From Yuukianura sp. NJ FZ-2021 (Eukaryota): a stretch of 64,000 nt of DNA. Positions within the stretch are counted from its first letter, which is position 1. Every line of letters starts with the position of its first letter. The notes under the pieces are model-generated. The model did no database searches and was not told the DNA's origin. It was given only the letters and a program-made list of their open reading frames with translations. Where the stretch lies: positions 6,262,001 through 6,326,000 of the forward strand of contig CM102290.1 in assembly GCA_046563655.1 (NCBI GenBank). The letters are read 5' to 3'. A program made the position numbers and the translations under genes. Of this stretch, positions 15,256-38,350 are shown piece by piece.

Positions 15256-16054
15256 AAAATGCACTTAAGAACAAAAGAGACATTATGCCTATCTGTCCAG
15301 TGGCTGTGTCACACATTGTGTCAGTTGTGTTATTTTGCCATCAAGGACATTTTTTCACTTGAGAAAAAAAGGCATAGCAATACACATAGGCCTTTGTGTG
15401 CTCTTTACCTCCTGTTCTTTCAGTCTTTGTGACAGAAAACATTTTGACATCTTAGTTCAGGAAGTTCAGCTTAACCAAAATGGGGAAATCTTTTCGCCAA
15501 ATTCGTCAGGAACGAAAATCGCGGGAACTGCTTGGAATAAAACATGTAAAATATATATCATTTTCTTTAATTTTTTTTGATTTCATGTTATGTTTTGAAT
15601 GTAAGCTAAGAAGTTATTTGTGTAATTTCTTTATTTTATAGTACTGTAAGGACACCACACGGCTACCAAGCCAGAGAGGGGCTGAAGTTCAACTCAATGG
15701 CGGGACCAAGGTACCATGACCTAACCCAAAAAGACTAACAATTTAACATATATAAATCCTACGTCGTGTCATGTCTCACAACCGCTGTTCCAAACCCGTT
15801 AGAATACGTGCGCGGGGTTTTGACTAAAAGCCTGCACGTTCATTTTTCCTTGATCTTCTATTTATGTTTGCATGAAAATGCAAAAAGTAATACGGCGCAT
15901 GCGCGGTAGAATAAAATGTCATGAAGTTAGTGTGTTTATGAGGCTACGTAACGTAGAAGAAATTATTTGCTATTCGTATTCCTCATGTAAACTATTTGCT
16001 TTTCGTGACTTTATTTTCGTTCATTCCTAGAAACTCAATAACATTTACCGCCGG

Positions 16055-16396
16055 ATGGGCACGGGGAAATCAGCACAGGGAGCCCAAAATTGGGTCATCA
16101 CGCAACATGAAATAGTAAGAACTCAGTTTGATGTGTTCATATCACAAAGGTTTAGGTTCATATTACTGACTTTTACTGAATTAGATTTGTTTTTCACTTG
16201 GCAGATAAAACCAGATGATATAATTAATCGTAGACGTCATAGGCGACGACTTGCAAGAGACCGTAAGCGGGACAAAAAAAATGATGAAGAAATGAAACGA
16301 ATTTTGGCAAAAACTGTGAATACAACAAACGGTGAACAATCTTCAACAAAATCTAAACCAAAAAATTCTCAAAAAAATAAAATTGCAGCTTCTTAA
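16055..16396 (+). CDS. Small highly basic protein, probably 2 exons (16055-16114, 16205-16396)
   Basis: The ORF contains an in-frame 90-nt GTAAGA...TTGGCAG intron-like segment. The product has an RRRHRRRLARDRKRDKK basic patch. Confidence 0.5.
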   Translation: MGTGKSAQGAQNWVITQHEIVRTQFDVFISQRFRFILLTFTELDLFFTWQIKPDDIINRRRHRRRLARDRKRDKKNDEEMKRILAKTVNTTNGEQSSTKSKPKNSQKNKIAAS

Positions 16397-16616
16397 CTAC
16401 CAAGAAGTGTTATATTAAAGCTAATATTCAAAAACAAAATTTCAACAACTTTCTACTCCTTGTTTACGAATTTCTAATATTGGAAAATCAAATTAAAGTG
16501 GAAATATTCAACAAAATCAAAGCGTAATTCAAAATTCAAAACGAAAAATCAAGTTAAGGTGAAACACATTGTATAATTTTATTGAAAAATTATTTGAATC
16601 AAATTTTAATTTGTGT

Positions 16617-18224: not shown

Positions 18225-18384
18225 CTTGTAACTGCAACTCTGACACAAGGCTTTTGGTTGTTTGGTAAGTGTTGTTTGGTAGTTGTTGACTGTATCACTG
18301 ATAGTACTCGACTGAATCAAAATTTAACGGTTTTGAAACAATCTGAATCGTGTGAAAATCCAAAGTTAGGGCTTCGCTTCATGG

Positions 18385-18645
18385 GAAAATGCAATTTTTG
18401 AAAATTCTGAAGTTGCAATTTTGCTAATTTCTCTTAAGTTGGAATTCTGAAGTTGCAATTTTGCTGATTTCTCTAAAACTAAAATTTTGAAATTGCAATT
18501 TTGCATTTTATCTCTTAAGCTTTACACTTTGCACGTATTAGAATTTAATTCTACTTATCGTCACTAAAACCTCCCATCATTAAACACAAAAAGGAGTTAC
18601 ACTCTTTAAGGGACAAAAAGGACTTACACCCTTTAAGGGACGTAA
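18385..18645. promoter_or_regulatory. Repeat-containing divergent promoter region between the PC4 gene and pPolB
   Basis: About 4 degenerate copies of (TTCTGAAG)TTGCAATTTT(G) at ~40-bp spacing, plus AAAAGGA.TTACAC.CTTTAAGGGAC x2. Confidence 0.5.
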
Positions 18646-18875
18646 AGGCTCTTCATAACCTGTTTGTAAGCATTCTATTAATTCATTCCCAGTTAAAATT
18701 TTTTCGAAGGAAATATTATTAGTCCTTATTGATTGTTTTATTTTTTAAAATGGCAATGGTCGGGGCAATTTAAATACTGTCTCCCTGCCGACGCCATCTG
18801 ACGGTGGAAATAGGAATGAAAAAGGTTCCGAGCATTTCCGTTTGGAATTTAATTTGTCTTTTTTGTTTTTAGAAA

Positions 18876-21800: not shown

Positions 21801-23007
21801 TGGATGTTACATACCCTGGTAGGAAAATTTTATAACAAATATTGAATCGTTTCAAGTGATTGTAATTCACGGTCTACTTACAGCTGAACTACACGATCAA
21901 CATCAGTGTTACCCTTTGGCGGTTGAACGGGCACACGTCAGCAATGAAATGCTTAGCCCTTTTCAAAAAAAGATGCTTTCTCAACTTCCAATTAAATATA
22001 TGGATCATCAGCAGAAGCTAGTTTCGCATTTTTTACCTCACACAAACTACATATGTCTCGCCAGCAATTTGCAGTTTTATGTCCAACGAGGACTTCAGGT
22101 GCAGAAAATACACAAGATACTTGCCTTCAAGCAGATGGCCTGGTTGAAGCCTTATGTCGAGTTCAATAGTACCAAACGGAGTTGTGCGAAGAATGAGTTC
22201 GAGCGGATGTTCTACAAGCTCTGTGTGAATGCTGTTTTCGGCAAAGGAATGGAGTCCGTAAGGAAGAGGATGAATGTAAGAGTGGTCAACGACAAACGAA
22301 CAGCGCTAAGGCTGATTGCAAGAAGCCAGTTTCTGTCACATGACATATTGGGGAAGAACTTAGCTTGCTTCAACATGCAAAAGCCTTGTGTTACACTCAA
22401 CAAGGCAATTTACACCGGATTTACAGTTCTGGAATTAAGCAAGTTACATATGTACAAGTTTCACTACAACTACGTGAAGAAAAAGTGGGGTGAACGTGCA
22501 AAGCTTCTCATGACCGATACCGATAGCCTGGCGTACCACATTACAACGACTGATGTGTATGAAGATATTTCTATGGACTTGCAGCATTTCGACACAAGCG
22601 TGCTTTCACCCGCTGACCCATTGTACAGTACTCACAACAAAGGAGTTATTGGGAAAATGAAAGATGAAGCTAAAGGAACAATTATTTCAAAATTTGCTGG
22701 AGTCGGGCCGAAGTCTTATTGCTTTCTTGGAGATGATACGCAAACGCCGACTTACAAAAAAATGGCAATGAAAGGCGTACCCCAAAGAATTCAGAAAAGT
22801 TCAATTTCGTTTCATATGATGAAGAATGTTTTATTTAAGCAAAAAGTTTTTGCATGCACTAGCAAGTCAATGCGTTCATATAAACATAAGGTGTATAACA
22901 TAAAGAGTACGAGAGCTGCACTGCATGGATTTGACTCAAAGAGGTACATTTTGAAAGATGGAATTTCTACATTACCCTTTGGTCATTACAAAATTAATCA
23001 GGAGTAA
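18876..23007 (+). CDS. Protein-primed family B DNA polymerase (pPolB), 6 exons
   Basis: Introns 20575-20650, 20722-20793, 21440-21494, 21675-21734 and 21819-21883 are all GT-AG. Splicing restores DHDHLTG|CFRG, ILPVV|MHNLRGYD, GMRG|GISQ, DP|ELI and YP|AELHDQH, collinear with Polinton A pPolB. N-terminal C2H2 fingers, WDMLNLYG, K..VNAVFGK, TDTDS. Confidence 0.93.
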
Positions 23008-23031
23008 ATAAATCAAAATACTGCAACACAT

Positions 23032-23728
23032 TTATATGTAGACTTTCAAAATTAATCGGATCTCCGTTCGGCAAATCGGGCAATGAGATTGAGTAGTACA
23101 ACAATCTTGACAGGTTGATAGATGGCAGCACGGTGCAAACATGTAGGTCGTGGTTTGAGATAGGCAAATTTTGCATGTGAACATGCTTTTGAGGTTGTTG
23201 AACTCGGTTTCTAAAATTGATTACAAACAAACTGTATACACCAACAGAACAAACGAGAAGTAACTTTTGTATATGAATTAAAGTTTCAATGCACACCTGG
23301 ATCAGAATCAAGCTTTCCGGTTTGAGCTATCCCTGCATCTGCCTGGTTATTCTGAAATTGCATTATTCGAGATTTACAACAACTTTAGAAACTTATAAGT
23401 CCATCCTTACATTTTCTTGAACCTGGCGTCCATTTATATAATGATATGCACAATCAGGGTTATATATTTGGTGTTCCAGTGATGGATTATCCAATTGATT
23501 CCACGTAGATAAGCATAGCCCGCAATAAAAGCAGATAGAACAATCCTTATGTTCTGTGAAAAAGAAGCCTGCCCTTGCCATGTTCACAAATGGTGGTAAT
23601 TTGTCACGCATTGCAGTTGGATAGCTAGAAATTCGTTTTTCGAGCTGAACGTATTCTTTAAAGGTAGGTCCTCCATCATTTGCTGCAATCACAGGCATTG
23701 TGAGAACCTCAATTGTTTCGGAAAGCAT
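23032..23728 (-). CDS. iap: Inhibitor of apoptosis (single BIR + C-terminal RING), 3 exons (23728-23411, 23351-23297, 23210-23032), ~183 aa
   Basis: BIR: RISSY...MARAGFF...CFYC-x16-H-x6-C. Exon 3, missed by the ORF track, reads CKICLSQTTTYMFAPCCHLSTCQDCCTTQSHCPICRTEIRLILKVYI*, an IAP-type RING. Splice phases are compatible. Confidence 0.9.
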
Positions 23729-23838
23729 GATGCACTACACACAAAGATCTTTGAAAGTTAGTTGGTATCAAAAGAACGGTCACTTAATGTGTAGACTTCT
23801 GATGCAAAACTGGTACTGGCTGAATGGTTTCACTAGCA

Positions 23839-24699
23839 TTAGAAAAACTTCCAGGCGGATCCCTTAGCAATTGGTGTTTGGTAATCCTCCCCTGATGGAT
23901 TGTCCCCTTGATTGAGATCATCATCGTTACTTTCGTCATTTTGATCATCTTCCATGTCCTCTTCTTCTTGTTCCTCCTCCTGTTCTTCTTCCTCGCCTTC
24001 TTCTAGTGGTTGGCCAACCATTGGAGTATTTTGAGCAAGTAGCGCTACCGTTGTCAAGTTTAGTTTGTTGCGAATATGAATTCCGAGTAATTCTTTTGGT
24101 ATATGTACTTTCTTCAAAATGTAGATGAAAGTACGTATCCCCTTTGGGGGAGTGACTTTCGCCGGCGGCTTGAGAACGTATGACAACAAATCAATAATAT
24201 TGGCGCCATTCCTAGGTACACCCTTAAAGAATACTTGACCCGACTCATCCCAGGAAATGTCGTTAAACGCAGATGTTGAAAGAATCTGCATTATTTTTAA
24301 ACCTGTCAACTGGTACTTTGTCGGTAGGAATTTGGCCAAATGAGTGTTGTAAAGTGCTTGGTCTACGGTTGTCTCTGCATCATGCTTCATGGTTCCTGTT
24401 GTCGTAGAAGTTGAATGTTTAGATGTCATAGGTAGAGGATCCGTTTTAGAAACTTCTACACGAAGAGGAGTTTCCGTCAAGGCTGAAAAGCTTGCGTGCA
24501 ATCCCTTCACCATACTATTGAATAAGGCTAACTTGATGTCATCCGAAATGGAATTCCAATGCAGAATATTTGTAGCTGCTGCTTGTTTCCTGTTAAACAG
24601 GTGAACTGAAGAAGATTTGTGTAACAACTGAGGAGCCCTTTGGATGGCAATAAGTTTCTCGTACTCTAGATGCGGTATTAACTTCATTTTTTTGGACAT
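23839..24699 (-). CDS. Conserved Polinton protein of unknown function
   Basis: Homolog of 2817-3995; acidic C-terminal tract; start overlaps the upstream stop (TAATG). Confidence 0.8.
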   Translation of the reverse strand: MSKKMKLIPHLEYEKLIAIQRAPQLLHKSSSVHLFNRKQAAATNILHWNSISDDIKLALFNSMVKGLHASFSALTETPLRVEVSKTDPLPMTSKHSTSTTTGTMKHDAETTVDQALYNTHLAKFLPTKYQLTGLKIMQILSTSAFNDISWDESGQVFFKGVPRNGANIIDLLSYVLKPPAKVTPPKGIRTFIYILKKVHIPKELLGIHIRNKLNLTTVALLAQNTPMVGQPLEEGEEEEQEEEQEEEDMEDDQNDESNDDDLNQGDNPSGEDYQTPIAKGSAWKFF

Positions 24700-25046
24700 T
24701 ATAAACCGACAAGATGAGTTAACGCATTCGCTGCGAGTCCGCCAAGTAGCGACAACGCTGGGGTTACCAACAACGGAAGAAATCCTCCCTTTTGTATAAG
24801 GAATTGTTTCTTTTTTTTGAGTGATAACTTTTTTGCGAGATTCCTGATACCAAACTTATGGCGTCGTAGTTTGTGTTTGTGGTTGTTGCTCAAAGGTACA
24901 TTACCTATCAAAGTATTCAGTGCAATTTCTGACAATGCGTCAATGTTGTCCTTTGAGGCTTTCTTTATTAGTTTCTTTCGACGGAGAGCTTTGCACCTCG
25001 TCACCTCTTCCAAGAACGTCTTGTTTCTAACTAATCGCTTTGTCAT
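24699..25046 (-). CDS. Small basic conserved Polinton protein (QKGG-FLPLL tail)
   Basis: Homolog of 4013-4372. Confidence 0.85.
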   Translation of the reverse strand: MTKRLVRNKTFLEEVTRCKALRRKKLIKKASKDNIDALSEIALNTLIGNVPLSNNHKHKLRRHKFGIRNLAKKLSLKKKKQFLIQKGGFLPLLVTPALSLLGGLAANALTHLVGL

Positions 25047-25060
25047 TCTAAGACAATCAG

Positions 25061-25772
25061 CTAGCTCGGTAAGTAAACGATGTGGTCTTCTTTCGGCAGG
25101 ATTCCCGACTGTATTCGTAGATTGTCGTGACAGCTAGGGTGCAAATTCAGAAATAAGTAGGAATACGGTTGTCGGGTTGCTTCCTCGTATGCGTTTAGAA
25201 TAGCACTTGGCTTCCTTGGGTTGAGCTGCCTACTGAGGTACATAACTTGAGAAGGGAATGAGGGTGTTTTGCAGATTGTCATGTAATGTGTATTGAGACG
25301 AATATCCCTAGCATATTTCCCTTGTGGCAGCAGATTTTGAGACAGAAAGATGACGGATATTGACCTGGAATTCGAAAACGTTTTGTAAATTCTATTCAAT
25401 GTAAGAGAAGCTATGTTTCACATACCTATGATGAACACCGCAAGTGAAAAGTTCTTGAATTGATTTATCTTTTAATGAATCCGCCATTTGGTCATCGATG
25501 ATTAACAGCGTATTTCTTGCATAAACTTCGTCCAACTTTATTCCTTCCAAACACCTAACTCTAGAATCCATTGACCTCATGACGTCATAGCCGCTTTGAT
25601 ATACCTTATAGAATACAATTACATCGTCGATCCTAGGTTGCACCATCATATCCAGGTTTTGAATAATCTTGCAAACGAAGGTTGTTTTTCCGGACATTGT
25701 ACCACCGGCAACGATGAATGTGAATGGATGTCTGAGTTGAATTTGATGGAAATCGTACGTATTGCTCTCCAT
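25061..25772 (-). CDS. DNA-packaging ATPase, 2 exons (25772-25426, 25364-25061)
   Basis: Walker A GGTMSGKT, Walker B LIIDD. A 61-nt GTATGT...TTCCAG intron restores GVHHR|SISVIFLSQN. Confidence 0.92.
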
Positions 25773-26518
25773 TAAGCTGATATCTTCCTAAAATGCAGAG
25801 TTAAAGTCACCTGTCCTTTGTCAATCGGCAACTCCTCGCCAAACTCGTCACACAGTACAATTGAGATGATGTCAAACTCGCTCCTTGAAATCGGAAGGTA
25901 AAACGGTTGCGGAAAAGTTTGAGTGACTGCTTGTCCTTCGTTTCCAATTATGTTTACCATACGAAGTAGAGGTACAAGAGAGGATCCAACGATTTGAGAC
26001 TCTATTATGTCGCAGTATAGAAACATGTGATATCGCCCACCGAGTATATCCGGTGGAGAATCGGCTATGAAGTAGGTATTTTGCTGATTTGCATTAAATT
26101 CAAGCGTACCATTATATCCCAAAATGTACGAGAGTTTCTCACTTATTTCGATACTAAATCCGGCTTCTACTTCCAGGCTCACGCGGCACTTTGTTTCGTA
26201 GTACTTCAAGTTGGAAGGGACGCTGTGCTTTATAAAAGATAAGTTGACCATGTGAACTAAATGCTCTACGGTACTGTAATGAAGTAAAGGAAGCTCTATA
26301 TTCCCGGCAGTCTTCGCCCCATTATACTCAATGAGATTATCTTTCTCAGCTCCGGTTAGAGTTTTTATGGAGCACACATAAGTCAACTCAGTAAGCCCGA
26401 CCTCGTATAAAGAAGGGTCAAGTTCTATTTTGGATGGAAGTTTAATCCTGTAGTTACTCGTTCGGTTGTCAGAAAAATAACGTGAGCCGTTCGACGGTAA
26501 TGTAATATAGAAGCCCAT
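25772..26518 (-). CDS. Minor capsid protein (PX/penton-like)
   Basis: FYITLPSN..YFSDN..SNYRIKLP...YEVGLTEL; MFLYCDII..QIVG....PLLR; TLHFR. Confidence 0.92.
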   Translation of the reverse strand: MGFYITLPSNGSRYFSDNRTSNYRIKLPSKIELDPSLYEVGLTELTYVCSIKTLTGAEKDNLIEYNGAKTAGNIELPLLHYSTVEHLVHMVNLSFIKHSVPSNLKYYETKCRVSLEVEAGFSIEISEKLSYILGYNGTLEFNANQQNTYFIADSPPDILGGRYHMFLYCDIIESQIVGSSLVPLLRMVNIIGNEGQAVTQTFPQPFYLPISRSEFDIISIVLCDEFGEELPIDKGQVTLTLHFRKISA

Positions 26519-26519
26519 T

Positions 26520-27449
26520 TTATTCGTTTCGACTTATCTTGCTGAGCTCTTGACTGTAATAGATCCCAGAAATTTGTTCACCGGAAAGATCTTTGACACG
26601 GTACGTCACTGGAATAGAATTGATGACTTCACAGACTTCGAAAATTTCGTTTGTAAAAGCAGGCCAATAACCCTTGCCAAATATGTGTTTCGTTTTATCA
26701 AGACGTACGCGGTCATATAGTTTGAGAATGGCTTTTGGTTTAGATTTGGAATACAAGTCCTTATAAGATTCCAACCAGACGTCCATTTCATTGTATTTAT
26801 TAACGTCGCATGGCGCCACTTTCGTCCGAGAATGTATCTTGCTGTTATAGGACTTCAATAGAAAGGGCAAGGCCTCAATGTATCTCTTTTGACCGGTTTC
26901 AGTAAGATGTCTGGAAATGGCTGTGCATATTGTTCGGTTAAACCTTTCAATAACACATGAGCCGAAGTCAGAGAAGTTGTGGTACATTAATATGCCGAGA
27001 GACTTCGCCCACTTCCGGAATGCAGCTGACCAAAATTCTCCACCTTGATCACATTCTAGCGTAACGGGTCGTCCCTTCCCGGAAGAAATGATTTTCTTGA
27101 ACGTTTGAATAACTTCACTAGTTTTTTTAGATTTCATGGGCACAGCAAATGCATACTTTGACAAGACATCGATCGCCGTTAAAAGACAAGAGTAGCCATC
27201 GTTCTCTTCAGTGTATTTCGGCAAGAACACAATATCAGCCTGCCAAAGATAGTTTAATGCTGGCGATATTACTCGTCTTCTACGAAATCTACACCTTCGT
27301 CCTTTATGACGTGTGTATGAATCTTGACTTTGTAAAAAATTCAATGCTGCAGACTGAGAAATGCCATGCAACTTGCTCAAATGTTTGTTTCCACACAAAT
27401 AACTCGATCTTCCAATCCGCTTGTATGACTTTGCGATGTCAGATTTCAT
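26520..27449 (-). CDS. Retroviral-like DDE integrase
   Basis: WQADIVF...DVLSKYAF...ECDQGGEF...IERFNRT. First ATG at 27449. Confidence 0.95.
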   Translation of the reverse strand: MKSDIAKSYKRIGRSSYLCGNKHLSKLHGISQSAALNFLQSQDSYTRHKGRRCRFRRRRVISPALNYLWQADIVFLPKYTEENDGYSCLLTAIDVLSKYAFAVPMKSKKTSEVIQTFKKIISSGKGRPVTLECDQGGEFWSAAFRKWAKSLGILMYHNFSDFGSCVIERFNRTICTAISRHLTETGQKRYIEALPFLLKSYNSKIHSRTKVAPCDVNKYNEMDVWLESYKDLYSKSKPKAILKLYDRVRLDKTKHIFGKGYWPAFTNEIFEVCEVINSIPVTYRVKDLSGEQISGIYYSQELSKISRNE

Positions 27450-27527
27450 ATTCTTTAATAAGATAATAAATTTGTAGAGTATCAAATTGGATTACATAAA
27501 ATTTTATATGGTTGTAGGAAATTAAAC

Positions 27528-28076
27528 TTACATATTGAGGAGAACTTCTAAAATTTCACAACACTGAACTATTTTAAGCAATTCTTGAGGTTCACTCGTC
27601 GAAGTTATTCTACTATCGTGCTGCAAATTAATTGCTACAAAGTCTCTTACAATGGCATCGTTTATATCTAGATCAAAATCGTTAAACTTGCTCAGAATTT
27701 TTTCGAATGATTCTCCCCTGATTCTGTGAAACAAATAGTACAGTGCAAACTGGCCGCAAGCGTCACTCTTCTCTGGTTGTACTCTAAGACTGCTCATTCT
27801 AATGACATCAGCCTTTGAGTAAAGAAAATTTACAAAGCTGGGAGTGTAAAACTCAATTGGCATTGCACAGCTGTCAAAAAATTCAACCTCTCTACCTCCG
27901 CTGTTTTTGAACATACTGATCCAATGCATTCCTGGTTCCTTTGAAGATTGGGAATTAACAACGATGGCGAACTGATCCGATGTAACAGCCTTCAATTTGT
28001 CAGAGGGTAGAACTGCGGTTTGATATGATTTGTTGAGGCTCCTATTCAAAATCTCCAAGATCTCGGTAGTGTTCAT
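27528..28076 (-). CDS. Adenain-like cysteine maturation protease
   Basis: Catalytic H (GMHW), D (FFDS), Q and C (QPEKSDACGQFALYYL). Confidence 0.93.
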   Translation of the reverse strand: MNTTEILEILNRSLNKSYQTAVLPSDKLKAVTSDQFAIVVNSQSSKEPGMHWISMFKNSGGREVEFFDSCAMPIEFYTPSFVNFLYSKADVIRMSSLRVQPEKSDACGQFALYYLFHRIRGESFEKILSKFNDFDLDINDAIVRDFVAINLQHDSRITSTSEPQELLKIVQCCEILEVLLNM

Positions 28077-29374
28077 TGTGCAACGACTGCTTGCCGGTAC
28101 TTGTCAATCTCCAAGACGCCTTGTTGCTCAGACAGTATGACACAATGGACTGATTTTTCTAAAGCAGTACCAAACTGAACTTCAATCTTCACACTCCCAG
28201 ACTTCTCCAAATGCAGCAACGCATCGTTCCCAGTGGGCTGAAGAATGTCAAATGTAAACAGTGCATTGTTCTCTTTATAGTCATCACGTGCAAAAGATAG
28301 TCCCACGTCATGCCCCGCTATTCCTGTGCTTGTGAATAGGAGATAGTATGGCAAAAGGCATTCGTCGTTTGCAAAATCCAGAGATAACGGTCTTATTGGA
28401 AGAGACACATTGTTGACTGAAATAGAAATGGTCTTGATGTTGTAATTATGGAAACGAAAAGGATTTGAATTGACGTCTCCATTGAATGCCAAGCTGTCCA
28501 CAAACCCGATTATAAGCCGGCTTGGTACAGTATTTGCAAAAAGATTTTCCTCTAGAGCAGATGAATTTCCTTGAGCAATCGTAAAATACTTTACATCAGT
28601 TGCCTTAAACGGGTATTGAGCGATTTCGCCTTTTTCTAGAAGTCTTTGATGAGCCAAGATGATGCTAGGAAATGGCAGTTGTTTTCGGATGTAATAAGTT
28701 GCTGACAAGAACTTTATTACACCGTCGTCACCTTTTGTTTTTGAGAAAAGAGCAAATGCATCAGAAGCTCTGGTTAAACAAATGCGAACGTTGACATCAT
28801 TTAATATATAGCGATGTTGATTTGCCAGGTTAAATCTCAACTTGTCGATTAGCTCAACAGGTTTCGATTCACTAATGAAGGCTTTTCGCTTTTCCCATCC
28901 CGAATTTGTTGAATCAGCAATTCCACCCAGTGTGTCTTCGTAATACAAAGCGCAACCCCCTTGTGAGCTCTTGTAATCTTTTCCGTAGCACAGCAATGTT
29001 TCAATGTATGCACGATAAGCGTAGCCGTTATTGCTTGTGGAAACAAGTTTTTCGTTGAAATAAATATCGAGCTGTGAGAAGAGTGCGTGCATGAAGAGGT
29101 TCACAGTACCAACGGTTGACTCTTTACCCAGGTTAGTTCCAGCCTTCTGGGTTACTTTAAGTTTCACCCGTAGGAAGCTGTCATTCAAATCAAGATAATG
29201 GTTGCTGTTTCCCGGAATTTTGAATTCGATTTTGTTTGACGAATCCTGAACATTGACAACTGGCTGATACTCTTCGTACATGCTGTAGTCACAGGTAGTA
29301 TCTGTTGCTGGAATTGAAAATAAGTCAACTTCTCCCCGAATAGCTGGTTTAGACCGAGAATGTAGTAGCGACAT
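28073..29374 (-). CDS. Major capsid protein (PY/hexon-like)
   Basis: 433 aa; DLFSIP.T...YQP...IEFKIPG...YLDL, NLFMHALFSQ, YAYRAYIETLL, PSRLIIGFV...AFNG...NPF.F motifs. Confidence 0.95.
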   Translation of the reverse strand: MSLLHSRSKPAIRGEVDLFSIPATDTTCDYSMYEEYQPVVNVQDSSNKIEFKIPGNSNHYLDLNDSFLRVKLKVTQKAGTNLGKESTVGTVNLFMHALFSQLDIYFNEKLVSTSNNGYAYRAYIETLLCYGKDYKSSQGGCALYYEDTLGGIADSTNSGWEKRKAFISESKPVELIDKLRFNLANQHRYILNDVNVRICLTRASDAFALFSKTKGDDGVIKFLSATYYIRKQLPFPSIILAHQRLLEKGEIAQYPFKATDVKYFTIAQGNSSALEENLFANTVPSRLIIGFVDSLAFNGDVNSNPFRFHNYNIKTISISVNNVSLPIRPLSLDFANDECLLPYYLLFTSTGIAGHDVGLSFARDDYKENNALFTFDILQPTGNDALLHLEKSGSVKIEVQFGTALEKSVHCVILSEQQGVLEIDKYRQAVVAQ

Positions 29375-29862
29375 TATGCAAATATATCCAATTTGGTTCT
29401 CTTTGCAGTCTTTGTTGACTTCGTTGAAGCCTTTCTCTTTTTCGATGCCTTCGGTTTCTTAGGTTTTCTTGACGCTTTGTTTCCTACTTTGGATGGCTTC
29501 CGTTTCGTGTATGTACGCTTCCGTTTAACTCCCACACCTTTCCCTGTTTGAGATCCAACTGCTGATTTCAAAAGATCGGCACCAACGTTTTTCAAAAATC
29601 CGAGGCTGTTTTCCTTCAGAGCGTGCTTTACTGACTGACGTCCTTTCGCAATCCCACTCACAGTTTTTACTGCTGCTTCCTTTGCATGGGGCATAATCCA
29701 CTTCATGATTATAGGCAAAGCGTATTTTGCAATTCCTCCTAGGATGGAACCAATGCCTCCTCCTCTCTGTCGTACCCCATGAAACACAGGAATTCCATGG
29801 CCAATTTGGTCCCTCAAAGTATTGTAGTAGTGTTCGTGATTAAACACGTACCTCTGCCGCAT
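29374..29862 (-). CDS. Basic core-like protein
   Basis: QIGHG, QRGGGIGSILG and QTGKG motifs, amphipathic middle, K/R-rich tail ending DIFA; homolog of 617-1312. Confidence 0.88.
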   Translation of the reverse strand: MRQRYVFNHEHYYNTLRDQIGHGIPVFHGVRQRGGGIGSILGGIAKYALPIIMKWIMPHAKEAAVKTVSGIAKGRQSVKHALKENSLGFLKNVGADLLKSAVGSQTGKGVGVKRKRTYTKRKPSKVGNKASRKPKKPKASKKRKASTKSTKTAKRTKLDIFA

Positions 29863-30097
29863 TGTAGATAGATGTTTTCAGTTTGACTTAAGAATGATCA
29901 CTGAGGGCTGAATTTCGAACTATGATTAATATGACTATTAGTCTACAATAGAATAACCGGAAAGGAATTCAAGCCCAGCTTTTATGATATAAACGGTTTC
30001 TAATGTTAAAAACGTTTATGTTTCAAACATTGCTTTACATGAAGATTTTGATTATTTCAGAGTATATATTGAATTCACTTTGAATTAAACAATGGTA

Positions 30098-30422
30098 AGT
30101 GGGTTAGCGCAATCGATAAGGTGGTGGCATCAAATCGAGGGAGCCTGGGGTCGATTCCCATTAGCAGTAATAAAAAAAATTAAAAAAAAAAGTTAGGTTG
30201 CTACTCTATTTAAACTCTTCGTATAGTCAAGCATTCTTCTCTCACGGATGCCTCGACTTGTTGCTCTCTGTTCTTTGAGTCACTGTTCCATTTCCACCAT
30301 ACTGGACAAGGTGGAATGAGACAATGACTTAAAGAGCAGAGAGCAACAAGTTGAGGCATCCGTGAGAGAAGAATGCTTGATTATGCGAAGAGTTTAAATA
30401 GAGTAGCAACCTAACTTTTTTT
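30098..30422 (+). ncRNA. Candidate Pol III transcript: tRNA-like leader plus ~113-bp hairpin
   Basis: A-box-like TAGCGCAATCG (30105-30115) and B-box/T-arm-like TGGG-GTCGATT-CCCA (30146-30160). Inverted arms 30185-30298 and 30310-30422, ending in T7 with no earlier T4 run. Confidence 0.6.
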
Positions 30423-30454
30423 AAAATTTAAATGGAATATGTACTTAATTTTTT

Positions 30455-30562
30455 CACGAGTGACAAAACGGCAAGTGCCGTTTTGACACTCTTTGTCACT
30501 TGGTCACTTTGTCAAAAATGACAATGAGTGTCAGAACGGCACTTGCCGTTTTGACACTCGTG
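30455..30562. repeat. Subterminal nested palindrome (two flip/flop hairpins)
   Basis: GAGTGACAAAACGGCA-AG-TGCCGTTTTGACACTC and GAGTGTCAGAACGGCA-CT-TGCCGTTTTGACACTC in inverted arrangement, overlapping the inner TIR edge. Confidence 0.85.
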
Positions 30563-30625
30563 GTCATTCGGTTCTGGGGCGACTTGAGATTTGTGGGGCT
30601 TGAAAGTGGCTCATCATCCTCATCA
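30546..30625 (-). repeat. Right terminal inverted repeat of Polinton B
   Basis: Exact reverse complement of 15176-15255, followed by the TSD GTTGTT. Confidence 0.95.
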
Positions 30626-30653
30626 GTTGTTTTCGTTATGCGGTTAGTTCGAA

Positions 30654-30686
30654 CGCCGCCGCAAGGCGGCGCCACGGATTGCCTAG
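30654..30686 (+). mobile_element. Helitron-type 3' terminus
   Basis: GC hairpin CGCCGCC-GCAA-GGCGGCG, 11-nt spacer, CTAG, then T. Confidence 0.6.
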
Positions 30687-31384
30687 TTTCAAATATTGAA
30701 AAGCTATTCAGTCCCGGACCCCATTCCCATTTCAGTTCCTATTTTTAGACAAAACAAGCGACTGTGGATCTTCACTTGAATTGTTTTGGTGGAAGTGGTT
30801 AAGGTGGAGTGTGGATGACAAATTCCTACCACACCTCATCTCCCGCTTTCTATACTAAAAACTATAGAAAAACCTGTTGTAGGGGGTTTGTTTGTTGGAG
30901 AAAGAAGCCACTTCATTGTTACTTAACGACCCCTCTCCAACAGGTGGAATCCACAATGGAACACAATCCACTTCCACTCCATCCATAAAAATTGAGGGAA
31001 GAAGTGGTTAAACTCTCTGGTGGGAATTTGATCCTCTCACAATTTAATTCTTTTGGAGAGACTTACTTGGATGAGATGGGAGAGGACTGGTGAGTCCATG
31101 AGTGTCTTTAGGAAAATTGTATCCGTACTTCCGTCCAGAGAGGAGAGATGACTGCGCACTGCTTGGAAAGCAACTGAAAACAAAAGAAAAGAGGGAATGA
31201 GTGACTTGGTTTAGAGTGAGATGGTGGGTCTGGTGGCTCACCATTGTCAATGGCATAGAGGTCAGAGGCGCTTTCCAGTGAGGCTCGGTGGGAAGGTGAA
31301 AGGTCAAGGAGTGATCTGCGCTCAGAACTAACGAAAACCATTACTCCACACAAACTAAAAAGTGTCAGTGGACCATTTCTCTGT

Positions 31385-33329: not shown

Positions 33330-33760
33330 AAGGAAGGCCCCACCTGAGACCCACCACACAGCGGAGACTACAACCACTACTACAATAACGAAGAGGACTC
33401 TGCCAAACTCCACTCGACTCCAGTAAGAGGACGAAGACCACACCGAAGACCTCAGCTACTGGAAGACAGCCCCACCAACACTCAACGGAGACAGCACCAG
33501 ACTACTGCACCCACCGAAGAAGACTTACGGCACAACTCCACTCGGCTCCAGCAGAGGACTTGAAGCCCCACTACTGGACCCTACACCACCACTGAAGGAA
33601 GGCTCCACCTCAACACTCAGCGGAGACTTCAACTACTTCAGCCACCAAAGAAGACGCCAGCAGACCTCCACTCGGCTCCAGCAGAGGACTTGAAGCCCCA
33701 CTACTGGACCCTACGCCACAACTGAAGGAAGGCCCCACCTTAACACTCACTGCTGGAAGA
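33330..33760 (+). repeat. Degenerate ~129-bp tandem repeat, about 3 copies
   Basis: CTCCACTCG(G/A)CTCCAG...GAGGAC recurs at 33408, 33536 and 33666. Confidence 0.8.
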
Positions 33761-33784
33761 CAGCTTCAACCACCGACTGCCGCC

Positions 33785-34630
33785 ATGGATGAACAGGAGA
33801 CCTTCCCGAAGTATAGCCGATGGACGGTTGGAGGAGTACATCGCGCCTTGATTGACAGCTCAAAGAAGAACCACGAACGACTCAACGACTTCAACACCAT
33901 CTACCGTCAGGAGACATCATCCCCACCAGCATTTAACTCGCCGTCACTACCGGATCGTGACTGCAGCGTAGTTCCAGAAGCCTCCTCTACCCTCAACACT
34001 ACTGCAGCGAAGGGCCCACCTGACTCACCGTCGCGCAAGGGATGCTGCAACTGGATGTCTCCTCGGGGCTTCTCTGGAGCTGGTTCAGGAAGTGCGACAC
34101 AACAATCTAAAGGCAGCTCTTCATTCCTCAAGCGGCCAAAGAAGAAGATGAAGCACGCTCAATATGGATTATGCAGATGTAACCACTTTGAAAACGACAA
34201 CATCAGTCAAATGGAGCAGTATCCGGGCCCAAAGGAACTTCCAATTGGAATGGGATGCAACCGCTCATCTACACTGTTGAAGGGCGACCGGACGGACAAA
34301 TTTCATCTACGACACACGGACTTCGTCACTTACTCAAAGAGTCCTGCTCAAATTGTACAACACCGAGATATCATTTTCTTCATCGCCTCGAAGCGGCCGT
34401 ATGGAATCCTCGACCCAGCTGCTTTCTTCGTCGTCGTCTCCAATGCTGGAGGAGACAATATCATGGTTCAACTCAAGATGGACAAGGATAACCCTCAGTC
34501 CAGGATCTTTTGTTGTTTCCATCCCAACGCGCCCGGAGTGTACGATGTGTCGGTAGTACTGGTCAATCAGCATATCGACGGAAGTCCGTTCCCTATCGAA
34601 GTGTCGATTGATCCTATGGTACCACTGTAA
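33785..34630 (+). CDS. Intronless ORF with a C-terminal filamin-type Ig repeat
   Basis: FHPNAPGVYDVSVVLVNQHIDGSPFPIEV matches the filamin/ABP280 repeat end (P..PG.Y.V.V....HI.GSPF.V). Confidence 0.65.
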   Translation: MDEQETFPKYSRWTVGGVHRALIDSSKKNHERLNDFNTIYRQETSSPPAFNSPSLPDRDCSVVPEASSTLNTTAAKGPPDSPSRKGCCNWMSPRGFSGAGSGSATQQSKGSSSFLKRPKKKMKHAQYGLCRCNHFENDNISQMEQYPGPKELPIGMGCNRSSTLLKGDRTDKFHLRHTDFVTYSKSPAQIVQHRDIIFFIASKRPYGILDPAAFFVVVSNAGGDNIMVQLKMDKDNPQSRIFCCFHPNAPGVYDVSVVLVNQHIDGSPFPIEVSIDPMVPL

Positions 34631-35740: not shown

Positions 35741-36824
35741 GGTTGTCATGGAAGTCGCTATTGTCTTTAGAATTTGTTTTCGGAACAATAGGGATTTAGT
35801 CAAGTAGACGGTAGAAGGGGTCATGGACACCTCTATTCATGCAGTAGTAGGTATGGTGGTAGAAAGGTACCACATTAGTACTGACCGGTGGACTGTCTTT
35901 TTGGGACAATAGGAGATGTTGTAGTAGGCACCCCTTTTCCTTCTAGGTTATTATTTTAGGGAAACGATAAGTTAGGTTAAAATTTTTCATAACGATATTA
36001 GGTTAGATTTCTTCTAGGTAGGTTAACTAATTTTAAGGACTTTTAGTTACTAGACAATTGACCCTCCAAGGGCTAGGATAGGCCAATGGAGTAAGACTTT
36101 AAGTGATTGCAGAACTTGAGTTCCGTGTCCGGAAAGGATTGGATTGTATTATTCCTTGTGAAAAGGACCAGTCGGGTCGATGAGTTGACCTTAGCAAACG
36201 GTGGAATCATGACCGGGCTATAGTTGTGGCTTTGCCCTATAGCTGCTCTTTCGTCGGGTGACAATCAGAAAACTTGGTGAGGGTGGAGTCATGACCTCCC
36301 GAGAGACAGGTTAGTATGTAGGAACAAGATTGGGGAGTGGTCACTTAGAGATATCACGATGGATCCGAAGGGGCGTGGACCCGCCTTAACTGGGCGGTCC
36401 ATCATAGTTAGGGTGTTGATGTAGGTGTTAGGGATGTTCCTTCAGTAAGATGGCTAAGGTAGTAGAGGGCCCAATGGACTACCGAAGAATGTTAAGGCGT
36501 TTTCGTTTACATTTTTGTAAAAGCTGTGAAAGCTTATAGAGCTGTGAAAGCTCACAGAAATTCACAATCCATGCCATCTGACCGGGCCAGTAGCCTAAGG
36601 CTCGTTGTCAATTTTGCTCTGAAGTATACCCCATGCCTCCGGAAGAGGGCATAAGAGATTTTAAAAATTTTTGGGATTGTGAGAGGAACTGGTCTGACCC
36701 TGAACTAAAGCCACATCAGAGGGGTGATTGACCCGAAGATTGATGGGTCACCTACCTTATACAACTTGGACGTTAAGGTTAGGAAACTGGAATTGTTGAA
36801 ATTCCTTTTATTTATCTTCTTAGA

Positions 36825-38207
36825 ATGACGAGGATGATAGGAATTATTTCGATTTGGGTGATGACCTTGATCTGTACAACAACTACAATGGCTACCGTTC
36901 TCAGTTATGAGAACGAGGACACCATCCGCTGTCACGAAGGGATGGAGTACCCTATGAGGAGACGGAGACAAATTTTGGATCGGAGGTGGAAAACTTCAAA
37001 TTTAACTTGGGACGTCAAAGAAGACATTCCCAATACGATGGATTTTAAAGATCTGATAGAGAACTTTGAGTTTGCTTTTCAAAAATGGGAAGAGATTTCG
37101 AATTTTACGTTTAGTCGTAGAGTCAATGAAACTGTAGACATTTCAATTCAATTTGCAAAAGGCTATCATGGCGACGTCATGGTTTTTGACGGTGTAGGAG
37201 GGATCCTAGCACACGCCTACTACCCGAATGTTGGGTTAGGCGGAGACATTCATTTTGATGCAGCCGAAAATTGGACTACCACACCTGGTAGAAAAGGAGT
37301 AGATGTATTTTCAGTTATGGTTCACGAGATAGGGCATGCACTAGGCTTATCACACTCTGAAGTACCAGGATCAGTGATGCATCCGATGTATCATCTCATT
37401 GACAAGAACATGTCTATTGGAAAACGGGATAGAAATGCCTTGCGTGATCTTTATAGATTTAGTCGAAATCTATCGCATGGTAGGAGGGACGCATCCCCTA
37501 CCTTGGATAACTTGATACAAAGTATGTGTAAGGAGAATTTCGAACATGTTTTAAAGTGGGGAAATGAGTTCTTCATTTTTAATGACAACTACCATTATCG
37601 CCTTTCAAAGGGAAAAGTTTCTTTTCCATATAAAGTTTTCAATGCCAACTATTTTCAACATTACCCTCCGAACATGGGAATTGAGTTAATTTTCCGATTT
37701 TATGAGAAAACATTTCTCATTGGTGATGATCAACTCTGGGAGTTTGGGTTCGCAGCAACATTATCACCCGGGTATCCCAAACCAATGACAGAACTAGGAA
37801 TCAATGAAACTAGAGTTATCGGTGTATTGTCATCCCCAAAACGACTGTATTTACAGTTAGAAAACGGCTGGAAACAGTACTATATACATCAAAGATTCCT
37901 GCAAGAATGGACCTACTCACAAGGCATGCTACCCCAACTTACTAATCTCACCCAGGCGTTTAACGTAATTGATATCCATCCGGAAGGCTACACCACGTAT
38001 AATGGTAGCCATATTTTAGATTTTGACACCAATTTGGTCTTACATTCCGTGAAGCCTTTAATGGACTATTTGGAGTTGCCATGCAATTCCGTTGAGGCTT
38101 TGGTAGTGTCAGAACCTATCGGTGGCCTGCCGTTAACAGGAATAGCTTTAGGTAGTACCACTGTTGTAGTCATAATTGTGGTGTTAGTTTGCTGGTTTTG
38201 CACCTAA
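36825..38207 (+). CDS. Intronless membrane-anchored matrix metalloproteinase (M10A)
   Basis: Signal peptide, RRRR furin site, HGD..FDG.GG.LAHAY.P, GD.HFD..E.W, zinc motif HEIGHALGLSH, Met-turn SVMHP, hemopexin-like region, hydrophobic C-terminus. Confidence 0.95.
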   Translation: MTRMIGIISIWVMTLICTTTTMATVLSYENEDTIRCHEGMEYPMRRRRQILDRRWKTSNLTWDVKEDIPNTMDFKDLIENFEFAFQKWEEISNFTFSRRVNETVDISIQFAKGYHGDVMVFDGVGGILAHAYYPNVGLGGDIHFDAAENWTTTPGRKGVDVFSVMVHEIGHALGLSHSEVPGSVMHPMYHLIDKNMSIGKRDRNALRDLYRFSRNLSHGRRDASPTLDNLIQSMCKENFEHVLKWGNEFFIFNDNYHYRLSKGKVSFPYKVFNANYFQHYPPNMGIELIFRFYEKTFLIGDDQLWEFGFAATLSPGYPKPMTELGINETRVIGVLSSPKRLYLQLENGWKQYYIHQRFLQEWTYSQGMLPQLTNLTQAFNVIDIHPEGYTTYNGSHILDFDTNLVLHSVKPLMDYLELPCNSVEALVVSEPIGGLPLTGIALGSTTVVVIIVVLVCWFCT

Positions 38208-38250: not shown

Positions 38251-38350
38251 NNNNNNNNNNNNNNNNNNNNNNNNNNNNNNNNNNNNNNNNNNNNNNNNNN
38301 NNNNNNNNNNNNNNNNNNNNNNNNNNNNNNNNNNNNNNNNNNNNNNNNNN
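38251..38350. other. Assembly gap (100 N)
   Basis: Run of n. Confidence 1.

Follow-up and report, generated by a model that had tools for sequence, protein, structure and literature searches.

Introduction

Can a Polinton encode a hairpin RNA of its own, in addition to the protein genes by which Polintons (Mavericks, adintoviruses) are described? The question is raised by the right end of Polinton B, an element in a window of 64,000 nucleotides (the whole stretch of DNA analysed here) from Yuukianura sp. NJ FZ-2021. A reading made from the letters of the window, called here the sequence-only reading, had proposed at this end a Pol III hairpin RNA resembling a VA RNA or a tRNA-hairpin unit. 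The window sequence alone does not establish a Pol III gene. When related elements and other copies are included, the balance tips towards 30093-30422 being a Polinton-borne Pol III-type hairpin-RNA unit of ~330 nt (probability roughly 0.55). Its transcription and the identity of the polymerase are what we infer from the features described below.

Polinton B and its non-coding right end

Polinton B is a complete element with the following parts.

15176-30625, no strand assigned: whole Polinton B, with coding set and terminal repeats
19494-22995, + strand: protein-primed polymerase, in four pieces of different frames, 64-76 nt apart
25070-25745, - strand: packaging ATPase
26535-27335, - strand: rve integrase (rve domain at 26520-27491)
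28073-29458, - strand: major capsid protein gene, double jelly-roll, F54H12.2-like, the query used to fetch relatives
29374-29877, - strand: last ORF before the non-coding right end, 167 aa, ATG near 29862
30455-30562, no strand assigned: second palindrome (subterminal repeats), arms of 47 nt, 91%
30539-30625, no strand assigned: right terminal inverted repeat, partner at 15176-15262, 87 nt, 98%

The element thus carries the Polinton/Maverick genes (protein-primed B-family polymerase, retroviral-type integrase, packaging ATPase and double jelly-roll capsid) and the Polinton/Maverick ends, namely terminal inverted repeats flanked by a 6-bp target-site duplication (GTTGTT at 15170-15175 and 30626-30631). 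Homologues of its polymerase, ATPase and integrase are present in the neighbouring Polinton A (polymerase E 9e-125). For the capsid protein, the nearest clusters score 0.98, a DJR-like domain is found on 14-24% of cluster members, and 191 homologues were found at E <= 1e-10.

No ORF of at least 150 aa lies within 29878-30625, and the ends of the element are set by the 87-nt, 98% repeat, which bears out the sequence-only reading that this right end of Polinton B is free of genes. The candidate unit sits in this stretch, between the last capsid-side ORF and the subterminal and terminal repeats. The second palindrome consists of four copies of a 15-nt motif in two head-to-head pairs, and a fifth copy lies inside the left terminal repeat (5 matches vs 0.29 expected; 5 reached in 0/100 shuffles). 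These short palindromic repeats beside the hairpin are plausibly protein-binding DNA.

A long hairpin ending in an oligo-T run

The most prominent feature of the non-coding stretch is a long palindrome.

30185-30422, + strand: long hairpin, 238 nt (5' arm 30185-30298, loop 30299-30309, 3' arm 30310-30422)
30416-30422, + strand: T7, candidate Pol III terminator, not preceded by any run of T4 or longer from 30090 on

The inverted arms (30185-30292 and 30315-30422, 108 nt) are 93% complementary, and RNAfold of 30165-30435 gave 111 pairs around the 11-nt loop at 30299-30309. The minimum free energy of 30090-30425 was -209.2 kcal/mol, compared with -79.2 +/- 4.9 in 100 shuffles (z -26.4), so that the fold of the palindrome is far beyond chance. 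The hairpin is single-copy within the 64-kb window, and its arms match nothing else in the window or in 80 related loci. At the centre of the palindrome, CCACC (30294-30298) and GGTGG (30310-30314) form a short inverted repeat.

On the + strand, the hairpin contains six G.U pairs (30222/30385, 30226/30381, 30255/30352, 30271/30336, 30277/30330 and 30287/30320), two C.A mismatches in the arms (30283/30324 and 30288/30319) and one bulge at 30293. All eight arm substitutions are transitions, split 6:2. The sequence-only reading had counted six G.U pairs among eight substitutions, including all five in the main stem, and the RNAfold pair list agrees. As an argument for an RNA, this excess is not significant in the window's copy alone (binomial p ~0.145, our own arithmetic). 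The folding energy of 30165-30435 was -190.2 kcal/mol for the + strand vs -173.1 kcal/mol for the - strand, and that of the trimmed hairpin (30192-30415) was -182.2 vs -165.2 kcal/mol, with 6 vs 2 G.U pairs.

T7 is the sole run of T4 or longer on the + strand in 30090-30430, with none between the predicted start and T7, as the sequence-only reading had also observed. The stretch would thus suit Pol III, with an oligo-T terminator and no earlier T4 run. Among 321-nt segments of 1-38250, 8.0% (+ strand) and 10.3% (- strand) are without a T4 run. T7 is not an independent feature, because it is mirrored by A10 across the hairpin and is thus part of the palindrome.

A putative tRNA-type leader upstream of the hairpin

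The following features precede the hairpin.

30063-30068, + strand: TATATA, candidate upstream TATA-like element, ~25-30 nt 5' of the predicted start
30093-30165, + strand: putative tRNA-type promoter module (leader), 73 nt, with A box at 30105-30115 and B box at 30148-30158
30166-30191, + strand: A-rich linker (A8 at 30172-30179, TT, A10 at 30182-30191)

The Pol III consensus words used here are TRGCNNAGTGG for the A box and GGTTCGANTCC for the B box. The A-box-like TAGCGCAATCG (30105-30115) agrees with the former at 9/11 positions, and the B-box-like GGGTCGATTCC (30148-30158) with the latter at 10/11. The B box is contained in TGGG-GTCGATT-CCCA, a T-arm-like stem-loop at 30146-30160, and the boxes are 43 nt apart from start to start. 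The module has an A box and a B box at the tRNA-like spacing of a Pol III type 2 promoter, a match that by itself is near chance: block shuffles of 1-38500 gave 1.2 A/B pairs at >=(9,9) per shuffle, and a scan of the same range found another (9,10) pair, on the - strand inside the polymerase ORF. All marks listed in the sequence-only reading, from TATATA and the box-like words to the inverted arms, the 11-nt loop and T7, were found in their places.

The leader is not a tRNA gene. ARAGORN found 0 tRNA genes over the window, the Rfam tRNA model gave no match at E <= 10 on 30070-30190, and in a cloverleaf checked by hand only 3/7 acceptor pairs formed. The predicted start was taken from the colinear alignment with relatives' units described below. 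TATATA alone is weak evidence because the surrounding stretch is AT-rich. It was also considered as the TATA box of the - strand capsid-side gene and dropped from that role; its distance of ~200 nt from that ATG neither supports nor excludes it.

The module itself lacks both a closing stem and a terminator and continues into the giant hairpin and T7. Module and hairpin have no sequence in common (z 0.2), and the last A residues of the linker pair with T7 at the hairpin base.

Related Polintons carry short A/B-box hairpin units

As relatives, 80 metagenome loci were fetched via the capsid protein. The same protein as a lone query found no relative among viral contigs, and the capsid alignment as the query found one distant relative there (37%). 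Six close relatives (L002, L003, L004, L006, L007 and L009; capsid 57-80% identical) have at least 480 nt beyond the ATG of the last capsid-side ORF. Nucleotide similarity between them and the window ends at ~29837-29867. Five of the six have 1-3 units of ~77-128 nt in the equivalent non-coding stretch, with the A box within the 5' arm of a long closing stem and the B box 42-47 nt downstream; in L007, no unit was found by the box scans, the relaxed scan or the structure-first scan.

Seven of the units were found blind. A scan of the 80 loci gave 27 A/B pairs at >=(9,9), compared with 19.4 in shuffles, and seven of the 27 lie in capsid-side non-coding stretches: two each in L002, L004 and L009, and one in L006. 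These stretches total ~6 kb, in which ~0.3 pairs would be expected (our own arithmetic). The box spacings of the seven are 42, 43, 42, 42, 47, 43 and 43, compared with 43 in the window, and their boxes score 9-11 (A) and 9-10 (B). All seven fold with a long closing stem, and in each the A box lies in the 5' arm of that stem. In six, a run of T5-T8 directly follows the 3' arm, and in the remaining one, U8, a T7 lies ~20 nt further. In most units, the closing stem starts ~12 nt before the A box, and its 3' end meets the oligo-T run at once or after a few bases. A structure-first scan of L001-L011, L038 and the window gave 126 candidates, of which seven had both A and B scores of at least 9; these were the same seven units, all among the 14 with MFE <= -31 kcal/mol. 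With an additional unit in L003 (A 9, B 8, 17-bp stem, T6) and one more in L004 found by eye (U7), there are nine units in all (U1-U9).

Other searches were less selective or too narrow. A relaxed box scan gave 22 matches vs 5.8 in shuffles, of which only four, with stems of at least 17 bp, were accepted, and a simple scan for a 12-bp stem beside a T4 run gave 313 matches and was too permissive to use. A covariance model built from U1-U4 recovered the four units it was trained on, the antisense strands of these and, in L004, one weak match (E 0.14), and was judged too narrow; its nine matches at E <= 10 over the window and the 80 loci include none in the window. A/B pairs at >=(9,9) of more distant relatives (L064, L071, L037, L019, L030 and L055) were rejected as units for having no closing stem abutting a T run. 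The sequence shared at the pairs of L064, L071 and L037 is, by eye, probably coding, and these were not counted. Nor was L080, which looks like a tRNA-derived repeat outside the capsid-side region.

The position of the units within their elements could be placed as follows. The terminus of the L003 element matches the window's terminal repeat (z 7.7, 0/200 shuffles). The termini of L009, L004, L006 and L002 showed no similarity to that repeat (z -1.2 to 0.6), and these four were placed inside the element via nearby subterminal-type repeats read by eye. The units of L002 and L004 have the same orientation as the window's module, and those of L003, L006 and L009 the opposite one.

Like the units, the window's module is located past the last capsid-side ORF and short of the subterminal repeats, and it can be aligned colinearly with ~75 nt at the 5' end of U1-U4. 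Pairwise similarity to the relatives' units is significant only for U8 (z 5.1, 0/300). Unlike a unit, the module has neither a closing stem joining its A-box arm to a 3' arm nor a T run. It may work like the promoter half of a unit fused to a separate hairpin. In L003, a 133-nt hairpin is found at the place equivalent to the window's hairpin, and its arms are homologous to the 5' arm of the adjacent unit (z 9.0, 0/500). Because the long hairpin of L003 derives from a unit's A-box arm, long hairpins are tied to the unit class.

These relatives bear directly on whether the box-like words stand beside a real palindrome by mere coincidence. The shuffle rate of 1.2 box pairs per 38.5 kb, the equally good pair in a coding region and the lack of a tRNA fold in the leader would all be compatible with coincidence. 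However, the pair, at a 43-nt spacing that recurs among the relatives' units, lies in the one stretch of 760 nt in which seven of those units were found blind, and only ~0.006 pairs of spacing 42-47 would be expected in 760 nt (our own estimate from the shuffle rate). We regard coincidence as very unlikely.

Covariation and strand bias of the units

Covariation, named as a check in the sequence-only reading, is found in the relatives' units U1-U4. In their alignment, 92.5% of cells are paired, and 8/27 pairs are changed on both sides, compared with 3.7 +/- 1.2 in shuffles (0/500) and 0-2 in slid controls. The closing stems of the relatives' units covary. When the sense strand was defined only by the box order and the T run, it folded better than the antisense strand in nine of nine units, including all seven of those found blind, and the units have 33 G.U pairs in total on their sense strands, compared with 11 on the antisense strands. 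Some of the sense strands are rich in G+T (0.47-0.61). The hairpin of the window is biased towards the + strand, the same direction as its module.

A structure formed in single-stranded DNA would also account for the stems and their covariation; what speaks for RNA is only the strand bias and the presence of T runs on one side. A different DNA-level role would be that of a TFIIIC site, in which the A/B boxes form a chromatin boundary shielding the integrated element and any RNA is irrelevant. Boundary function is established for tRNA genes and TFIIIC sites, and B boxes recur near the element end in five of the six relatives. We nevertheless give this explanation little credence, since it leaves the covarying closing stems, the sense-strand folding bias and the oligo-T runs after the stems unexplained.

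The hairpin in other copies of the element

Other copies were judged from assembled contigs of four DNA runs, with crude depths, and the figures given here refer to the contigs listed. The hairpin is present in other copies: among the four joints listed, none skips it, and a contig of run X3 (organism B) spans 30225-30380 and shows a single difference. On these crude values, the hairpin's summed contig depth resembles that of the rest of the element and is not far above it; in run X3, it is 5-24, compared with 660 for a truly repeated contig there.

These data speak on the possibility that a mobile element is nested in Polinton B, either as a foldback or MITE insertion forming the hairpin or as a tRNA-derived SINE formed by the module and the A-rich tract, which would have entered before the family was amplified. 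Nearly all of the hairpin consists of two inverted arms, as in foldback MITEs, the A-rich tract follows a tRNA-like piece as SINE tails do, and AAAATT, present at 30176-30181 and again at 30423-30428, might represent a target duplication of 6 bp. This duplication is ambiguous, because the A/T tracts can just as well be explained by the palindrome extending outwards. The sequence-only reading had named a dispersed MITE absent from other copies as the case that would overturn it. No listed contig joins across the hairpin, and its depth is element-like, which is not the pattern that such a MITE would be expected to leave. There is also no second hairpin copy in the 64-kb window and no sign of dispersed high copy number in these contigs, and an exact-pattern scan for one hairpin-arm word gave 0 matches in viral contigs and 0 in metagenome contigs. 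In the relatives' units, unlike in SINEs, the A box is paired within a stem that is followed by an oligo-T end. A nested element is therefore improbable.

The leader varies between copies, with 30103 G>A, 30113 T>A and 30119 A>G in contigs of other copies. The change at 30113 is found in all listed X1 and X2 contigs covering the A box and lowers the A box to 8/11 (our own count). Two stem variants are among those listed, 30271 T>C and 30385 G>A. Each changes a G.U pair to a Watson-Crick pair, and + strand pairing is therefore kept.

The most serious alternative to a Pol III unit is that the module could be a 3'-truncated unit remnant beside an unrelated palindrome, which would be a separate inverted duplication making no purposeful RNA and either neutral or acting at the DNA level, e.g. 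in replication, packaging or integration. Several observations fit this explanation. First, the module lacks the closing stem and terminator that are present in all nine relatives' units, and its A box, degenerate here, is even weaker in other copies. Second, no sequence is common to module and hairpin, T7 and A10 are symmetric parts of the palindrome, and eight transitions split 6:2 fit slow neutral decay. Third, the adjoining region is rich in short palindromic subterminal repeats, plausibly protein-binding DNA, and the central CCACC/GGTGG repeat could have seeded a template-switch duplication. However, L003 has a long hairpin at the equivalent place that derives from a unit's A-box arm, the + strand G.U bias agrees with the direction of the module, 321 nt without a T4 run would occur by chance in only 8-10% of cases, and the palindrome is present in the other copies seen, where both listed variants keep + strand pairing. 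On these grounds, we rate a relic beside a palindrome as a rather unlikely explanation, behind a Pol III-type unit.

Proposed unit and comparison with known Pol III hairpin RNAs

If Pol III reads this locus, it would be recruited through TFIIIC bound to the two internal boxes, B at 30148-30158 and A at 30105-30115. Transcription would begin near 30093-30094 and pass through the 73-nt tRNA-type leader, the A-rich linker and the palindrome of 238 nt before ending in T7 (30416-30422). The resulting RNA, ~330 nt long, would contain a 111-bp duplex with six G.U pairs and carry a 3' oligo-U tail. The window's unit may be the long-stem form of an RNA-like unit class of this Polinton clade, whose self-closed units in relatives are ~77-128 nt long and have their 5' ends where Pol III should start, in most of them ~12 nt before the A box. 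The proposal of a Pol III unit in a Polinton thus gains from the A/B-box hairpin units of relatives, their covariation and the sense-strand bias, and has to give up the tRNA character of the leader.

Long inverted-repeat loci that feed endogenous siRNA pathways in animals and plants also have duplexes of >100 bp and a small loop. Those loci are Pol II host transcripts whose arms match targets, whereas the window's arms match nothing in the window or the 80 loci. The tRNA-derived SINEs and foldback MITEs are alike in having A and B boxes followed by an A-rich tract, or long inverted arms, but the window shows no clear target duplication.

A close layout is that of the retroviral Pol III hairpins, in which internal A/B-box-type promoters are combined with hairpin 5' and 3' ends set by Pol III start and stop (PMC4378190). 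Most of the relatives' units have the same layout, with a stem that begins ~12 nt before the A box and ends at or near a T run, and the window shares the promoter type and the T-run end. The retroviral hairpins are of pre-miRNA size and occur in retroviruses, whereas the relatives' units are ~77-128 nt with a tRNA-like interior and are known from sequence, and the window has 111 pairs and a separate upstream leader.

The TMERs of MHV68 are Pol III units near the genome end of a DNA virus, with a tRNA-type leader followed by one or more hairpins and a poly-U end (PMC4378190). The window has the same order of leader, hairpin and T run, and only the order of parts and the T run agree. The TMER leader is tRNA-like and cut by RNase Z, and its hairpins, usually two, are pre-miRNAs; in the window no cloverleaf was found and there is one hairpin of 238 nt, ~four times longer, so that it is not a TMER.

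Adenoviruses are evolutionary relatives of Polintons, whose lineage is thought to be ancestral to them, and their VA RNAs are ~160 nt long, composed of an apical stem, a central domain and a terminal stem, with imperfect stems that bind but do not activate PKR. VA RNAs are highly structured Pol III products with an internal promoter, a closing terminal stem and a U-rich 3' end, and as Dicer substrates may compromise the miRNA pathway (PMC4378190). The VA-like character suggested by the sequence-only reading is not supported: the near-perfect 111-bp duplex differs in size and shape from the VA family, and Rfam searches gave no family above or near the gathering score, VA included. We claim no homology to VA RNA. 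From a perfect duplex of 111 bp, one would expect activation of dsRNA sensors and not escape from them. If the Pol III RNAs of adenovirus, MHV68 and BLV are a guide, the RNA would most likely be processed by the host dsRNA/Dicer machinery or saturate it.

Conclusion

In conclusion, shorter versions of the unit are found at the same place in related elements, and these elements may therefore make regulatory or defence-blocking RNAs of their own. More tentatively, an animal Polinton clade might encode Pol III self-closed hairpin RNAs, of which the window's enlarged member would flood or reprogram Dicer/RNAi or supply siRNAs; the siRNA target would then be a rival or the host, and the units would be natural shRNA-like cassettes with the promoter inside the RNA. 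In open-access and bioRxiv full text, we found no paper linking Polintons to Pol III genes, VA-like RNAs, TFIIIC or B boxes. If true, Polintons would gain a first class of non-coding RNA genes, and the viral use of Pol III decoys or miRNAs, as in adenoviruses, herpesviruses and retroviruses, would extend to the Polinton lineage. An A box in a closing stem, a B box that follows ~43 nt downstream and an oligo-T run where the stem ends or close by can together serve as a descriptor for annotating Polinton ends and scanning other clades. If the units are transcribed, Polintons would be added to the small number of virus groups with abundant Pol III RNAs, and how they evade or use RNAi and piRNA defences in animal germlines would become testable through small-RNA data.

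Results

Module and hairpin lie inside a complete Polinton

Polinton B (15176-30625) is bounded by a terminal inverted repeat (15176-15262 with 30539-30625, 87 nt, 98%) and flanked by GTTGTT on either side. The A-box/B-box leader (the module, 30093-30165) and the palindrome that follows it (the hairpin, 30185-30422) are inside this complete element, together with the following features.

19494-22995: protein-primed polymerase, four pieces
Inside Polinton B: packaging ATPase and rve integrase
28073-29458: double jelly-roll capsid gene
30063-30068, + strand: TATATA, read in the sequence
30105-30115, + strand: A-box-like word, 9/11 against the consensus
30148-30158, + strand: B-box-like word, 10/11 against the consensus, within a small T-arm-like stem-loop
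Between the B-box stem-loop and the inverted arms, + strand: A-rich tract, read in the sequence
30185-30292 with 30315-30422, + strand: inverted arms, 108 nt, 93%
30416-30422, + strand: T7, end of the 3' arm

The polymerase pieces are in three different frames, and the gaps between them (64, 76 and 68 nt) look like short introns, not decay. The sequence-only reading had placed TATATA, boxes, arms and T7 correctly in a gene-free right end, where no ORF of at least 150 aa was found from 29878 to the end of the element. A second palindrome follows the hairpin, ahead of the terminal repeat; it comprises a 15-nt motif in four copies, and the left terminal repeat has one further copy.

The hairpin is real. 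Folded as RNA, 30090-30425 reaches -209.2 kcal/mol versus -79.2 ± 4.9 in shuffles (z -26.4). On the + strand, 30165-30435 folds into 111 pairs, six of them G.U, around an 11-nt loop; two C.A mismatches and one bulge interrupt the stem. The energy of this fold is -190.2 kcal/mol, compared with -173.1 for the - strand. As had been claimed, there is no T4 run on the + strand between 30090 and T7.

Several other features of the window were recorded. Polinton A (1-10848) is a second, different element, truncated where the window starts on the left. Besides an rve integrase and an ATPase it encodes a polymerase in an ORF of 1342 aa, which includes a zinc-finger match and an Endonuclease VII domain; its capsid-side end, where a comparable RNA unit would be expected, is beyond the window. 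Between the two elements there is an AT-rich imperfect palindrome of 134 nt (13844-13977, ~72% self-complementary). Beside Polinton B, a filamin-repeat ORF and a matrix metalloproteinase (matrixin and hemopexin) at 33596-34630 and 36783-38207 are host-type genes, from which the host is an animal. Directly after a 100-N gap (38251-38350), ~25 kb of satellite-like tandem repeats begin (38600-64000; start-to-start spacings 155 and 543 nt), and many copies are 100% identical.

The hairpin in other copies of the element

A search for sequencing runs listed five DNA runs and no RNA run. Contigs from four DNA sequencing runs (X1-X4) were compared with the window over 29000-31200. The sequence-only reading had named a dispersed MITE, absent from other copies, as an outcome that would refute its proposal. 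None of the four listed contig joints skips the hairpin, and its summed depth, crude as these depths are, is about that of the rest of the right end (X1 167-684, X2 433-2676, X3 5-24); a truly repeated X3 contig has a depth of 660. In these contigs the hairpin therefore behaves as a stable component of the Polinton family, without the look of a dispersed MITE of high copy number. A nested MITE or SINE is an improbable explanation.

Contigs of other copies vary from the window at 30103, 30113 and 30119, and the variant at 30113 falls within the A box, giving a score of 8/11 by hand count. At two further sites, 30271 (T>C) and 30385 (G>A), the variant base converts one of the window's G.U pairs to a Watson-Crick pair. 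The X3 loose end at 30625 continues into the window's own left flank, so "organism B" carries the same insertion, not an independent one.

The 43-nt piece at 30646-30688, in the flank just outside Polinton B, is a short dispersed repeat. In several runs the contigs end on either side of it, the loose ends falling at 30646 in X3 and X4 and at 30688 in all four runs. The X3 contig of depth 660 (4882 nt) represents a related, much more abundant family, which matches the coding parts 29187-29385 and 29683-29862 at ~80%. It diverges at precisely position 29862, where the last ORF has its ATG, and has a different non-coding end.

The window's copy by itself

From the window's copy alone, the promoter reading is not secure. 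Shuffles yield 1.2 A/B-box pairs of such quality per 38.5 kb, and the polymerase ORF holds a pair as good as the module's. T4-free 321-nt windows arise by chance at 8-10%, and an A10 mirrors T7 on the opposite side of the hairpin. The G.U pairs put forward in favor of an RNA are present, but their share (6/8 of arm substitutions) is non-significant in this copy. ARAGORN found no tRNA gene in the window, and the Rfam tRNA model gave no match even at E ≤ 10 on 121 bases around the module (30070-30190); the remaining Rfam matches were sub-threshold and of generic miRNA-hairpin type.

Relatives carry A/B-box hairpin units

Close relatives of the capsid protein occur in public metagenomes, and an alignment of 21 of them led to 80 loci (L001-L080). 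Nucleotide similarity to the window stops at ~29837-29867, near the ATG of the last ORF (~29862). Six close loci (L002, L003, L004, L006, L007 and L009; 57-80% capsid identity) extend at least 480 nt past this point, and these non-coding stretches, read in window orientation, showed recurring units made up of a near-perfect A box, a B box and a T run.

A blind scan of the 80 loci for A/B pairs scoring at least 9 in each box gave 27 matches versus 19.4 in shuffles, which is no excess overall. Seven of them lie within the ~6 kb that these non-coding stretches add up to (two each in L002, L004 and L009, one in L006), where by our own estimate ~0.3 are expected. The box spacing of these seven is 42-47 nt, and a T run of 4-8 bases starts 18-69 nt past the B-box start. 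All seven fold as self-closed hairpins whose A box is part of the 5' arm of a long closing stem, which begins ~12 nt upstream of the A box in most units, and in six T5-T8 directly follows the 3' arm; the unit U8 has an internal T4 run and a T7 ~20 nt past the stem. A structure-first scan of every T5+ run after a closed 70-140-nt fold (L001-L011, L038 and the window) gave 126 candidates; exactly seven had both boxes at 9 or more, the same seven units, which rank among its 14 most stable folds. With a relaxed scan, L003 also yielded a unit (A 9, B 8, 17-bp stem, T6), and a further L004 unit (U7) was spotted by eye; box and structure scans found none in L007. The end of the L003 element shows homology to the terminal repeat of Polinton B (z 7.7), which places the L003 units inside the element. 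Units of L002 and L004 point toward the terminus, as does the module, and those of L003, L006 and L009 toward the capsid genes.

Signals at the RNA level were seen in these units. U1-U4 align over their full length, their consensus structure pairs 92.5% of cells, and both sides changed in 8/27 pairs versus 3.7 ± 1.2 in shuffles (0/500); a slid-partner control gave 0-2 such pairs. With the sense strand set solely by box order and T run, sense folded better than the reverse complement in 9/9 units (7/7 of those found blind), with G.U totals of 33 and 11, respectively. Sense-strand G+T is 0.47-0.61, and base composition may contribute to this bias. As read in the sequence, a mirrored A run precedes the 5' arm in none of the units, which makes their T runs one-sided. 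Over the relatives' loci, neither ARAGORN nor Rfam found a tRNA or any other family; the best tRNA-model match was partial (15 bits, E 1.6).

The same stretches hold other motifs. Two TGACGTCA palindromes in L003 (~1640-1665), between the capsid-side ORF's ATG and the first RNA-like unit, are CRE/ATF-type sites, an arrangement similar to adenovirus early promoters. Between units and terminus, L003 (~1080-1225), L009 (~110-230) and L006 (1-107) have their own short palindromic subterminal repeat arrays, corresponding to 30455-30562 of the window; a GAGTGACA-type word is common to the window and L009. Proteins of the element itself probably bind these arrays.

Fit of the window to the units

The module occupies the same non-coding stretch as the units, its box spacing is 43 nt, and it is colinear in alignment with the 5' ~75 nt of U1-U4. 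The U1-U4 model gave no match to it, and its similarity to individual units is significant for U8 only. It has no closing stem and no terminator of its own; where units have a 3' arm, the window has an A-rich linker, the giant hairpin and T7. The hairpin has no common sequence with the module (z 0.2). The main rival, a truncated relic unit beside an unrelated palindrome that is neutral or acts at the DNA level, is rather unlikely in our judgment. In L003, a 133-nt hairpin followed by T5 lies 330-460 nt from the ATG (323-560 in the window), and its arms show homology to the adjoining unit's A-box arm (z 9.0), so long hairpins here can arise from units. That the module is a TFIIIC boundary site, or a product of plain chance, seems highly doubtful.

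Discussion

We favor, at a probability of about 0.55, a reading in which the module drives Pol III from ~30093 across the hairpin to a stop at T7. The product would be a ~330-nt RNA carrying a 111-bp duplex, which, judged by its shape, could be a substrate for Dicer or a sink that takes up dsRNA-binding proteins. No further matches to the hairpin arms were found in the window or related loci.

Excerpts of one paper (PMC4378190) describe three viral systems: adenovirus VA RNAs, which are ~160-nt Pol III transcripts and Dicer substrates and may compromise miRNA biogenesis; MHV68 tRNA-pre-miRNA chimeras with poly-U ends; and BLV pre-miRNAs, endogenous shRNAs with type II Pol III promoters whose ends are fixed by Pol III start and stop. 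As described there, the window's part order resembles the MHV68 chimeras and the relatives' units are closest to the BLV layout, but neither can be placed in any of the three families, owing to size, fold or model match. In the excerpted adintovirus paper (PMC8502044), predicted tRNA genes are flagged in some non-animal relatives, and "hairpin", "noncoding" and "miRNA" are absent. A nematode Polinton preprint contains none of tRNA, hairpin or small RNA, and searches joining Polinton/Maverick with Pol III, VA RNA, tRNA-like, TFIIIC or B box gave general reviews only.

In conclusion, the observation is confirmed. The Pol III interpretation has partial support and gains strength from the relatives, whose A/B-box hairpin units are sense-biased and, in U1-U4, covary; no tRNA fold was found in the module. 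Viral Pol III non-coding RNA genes are already known, and a Polinton-borne version would be the new element here.
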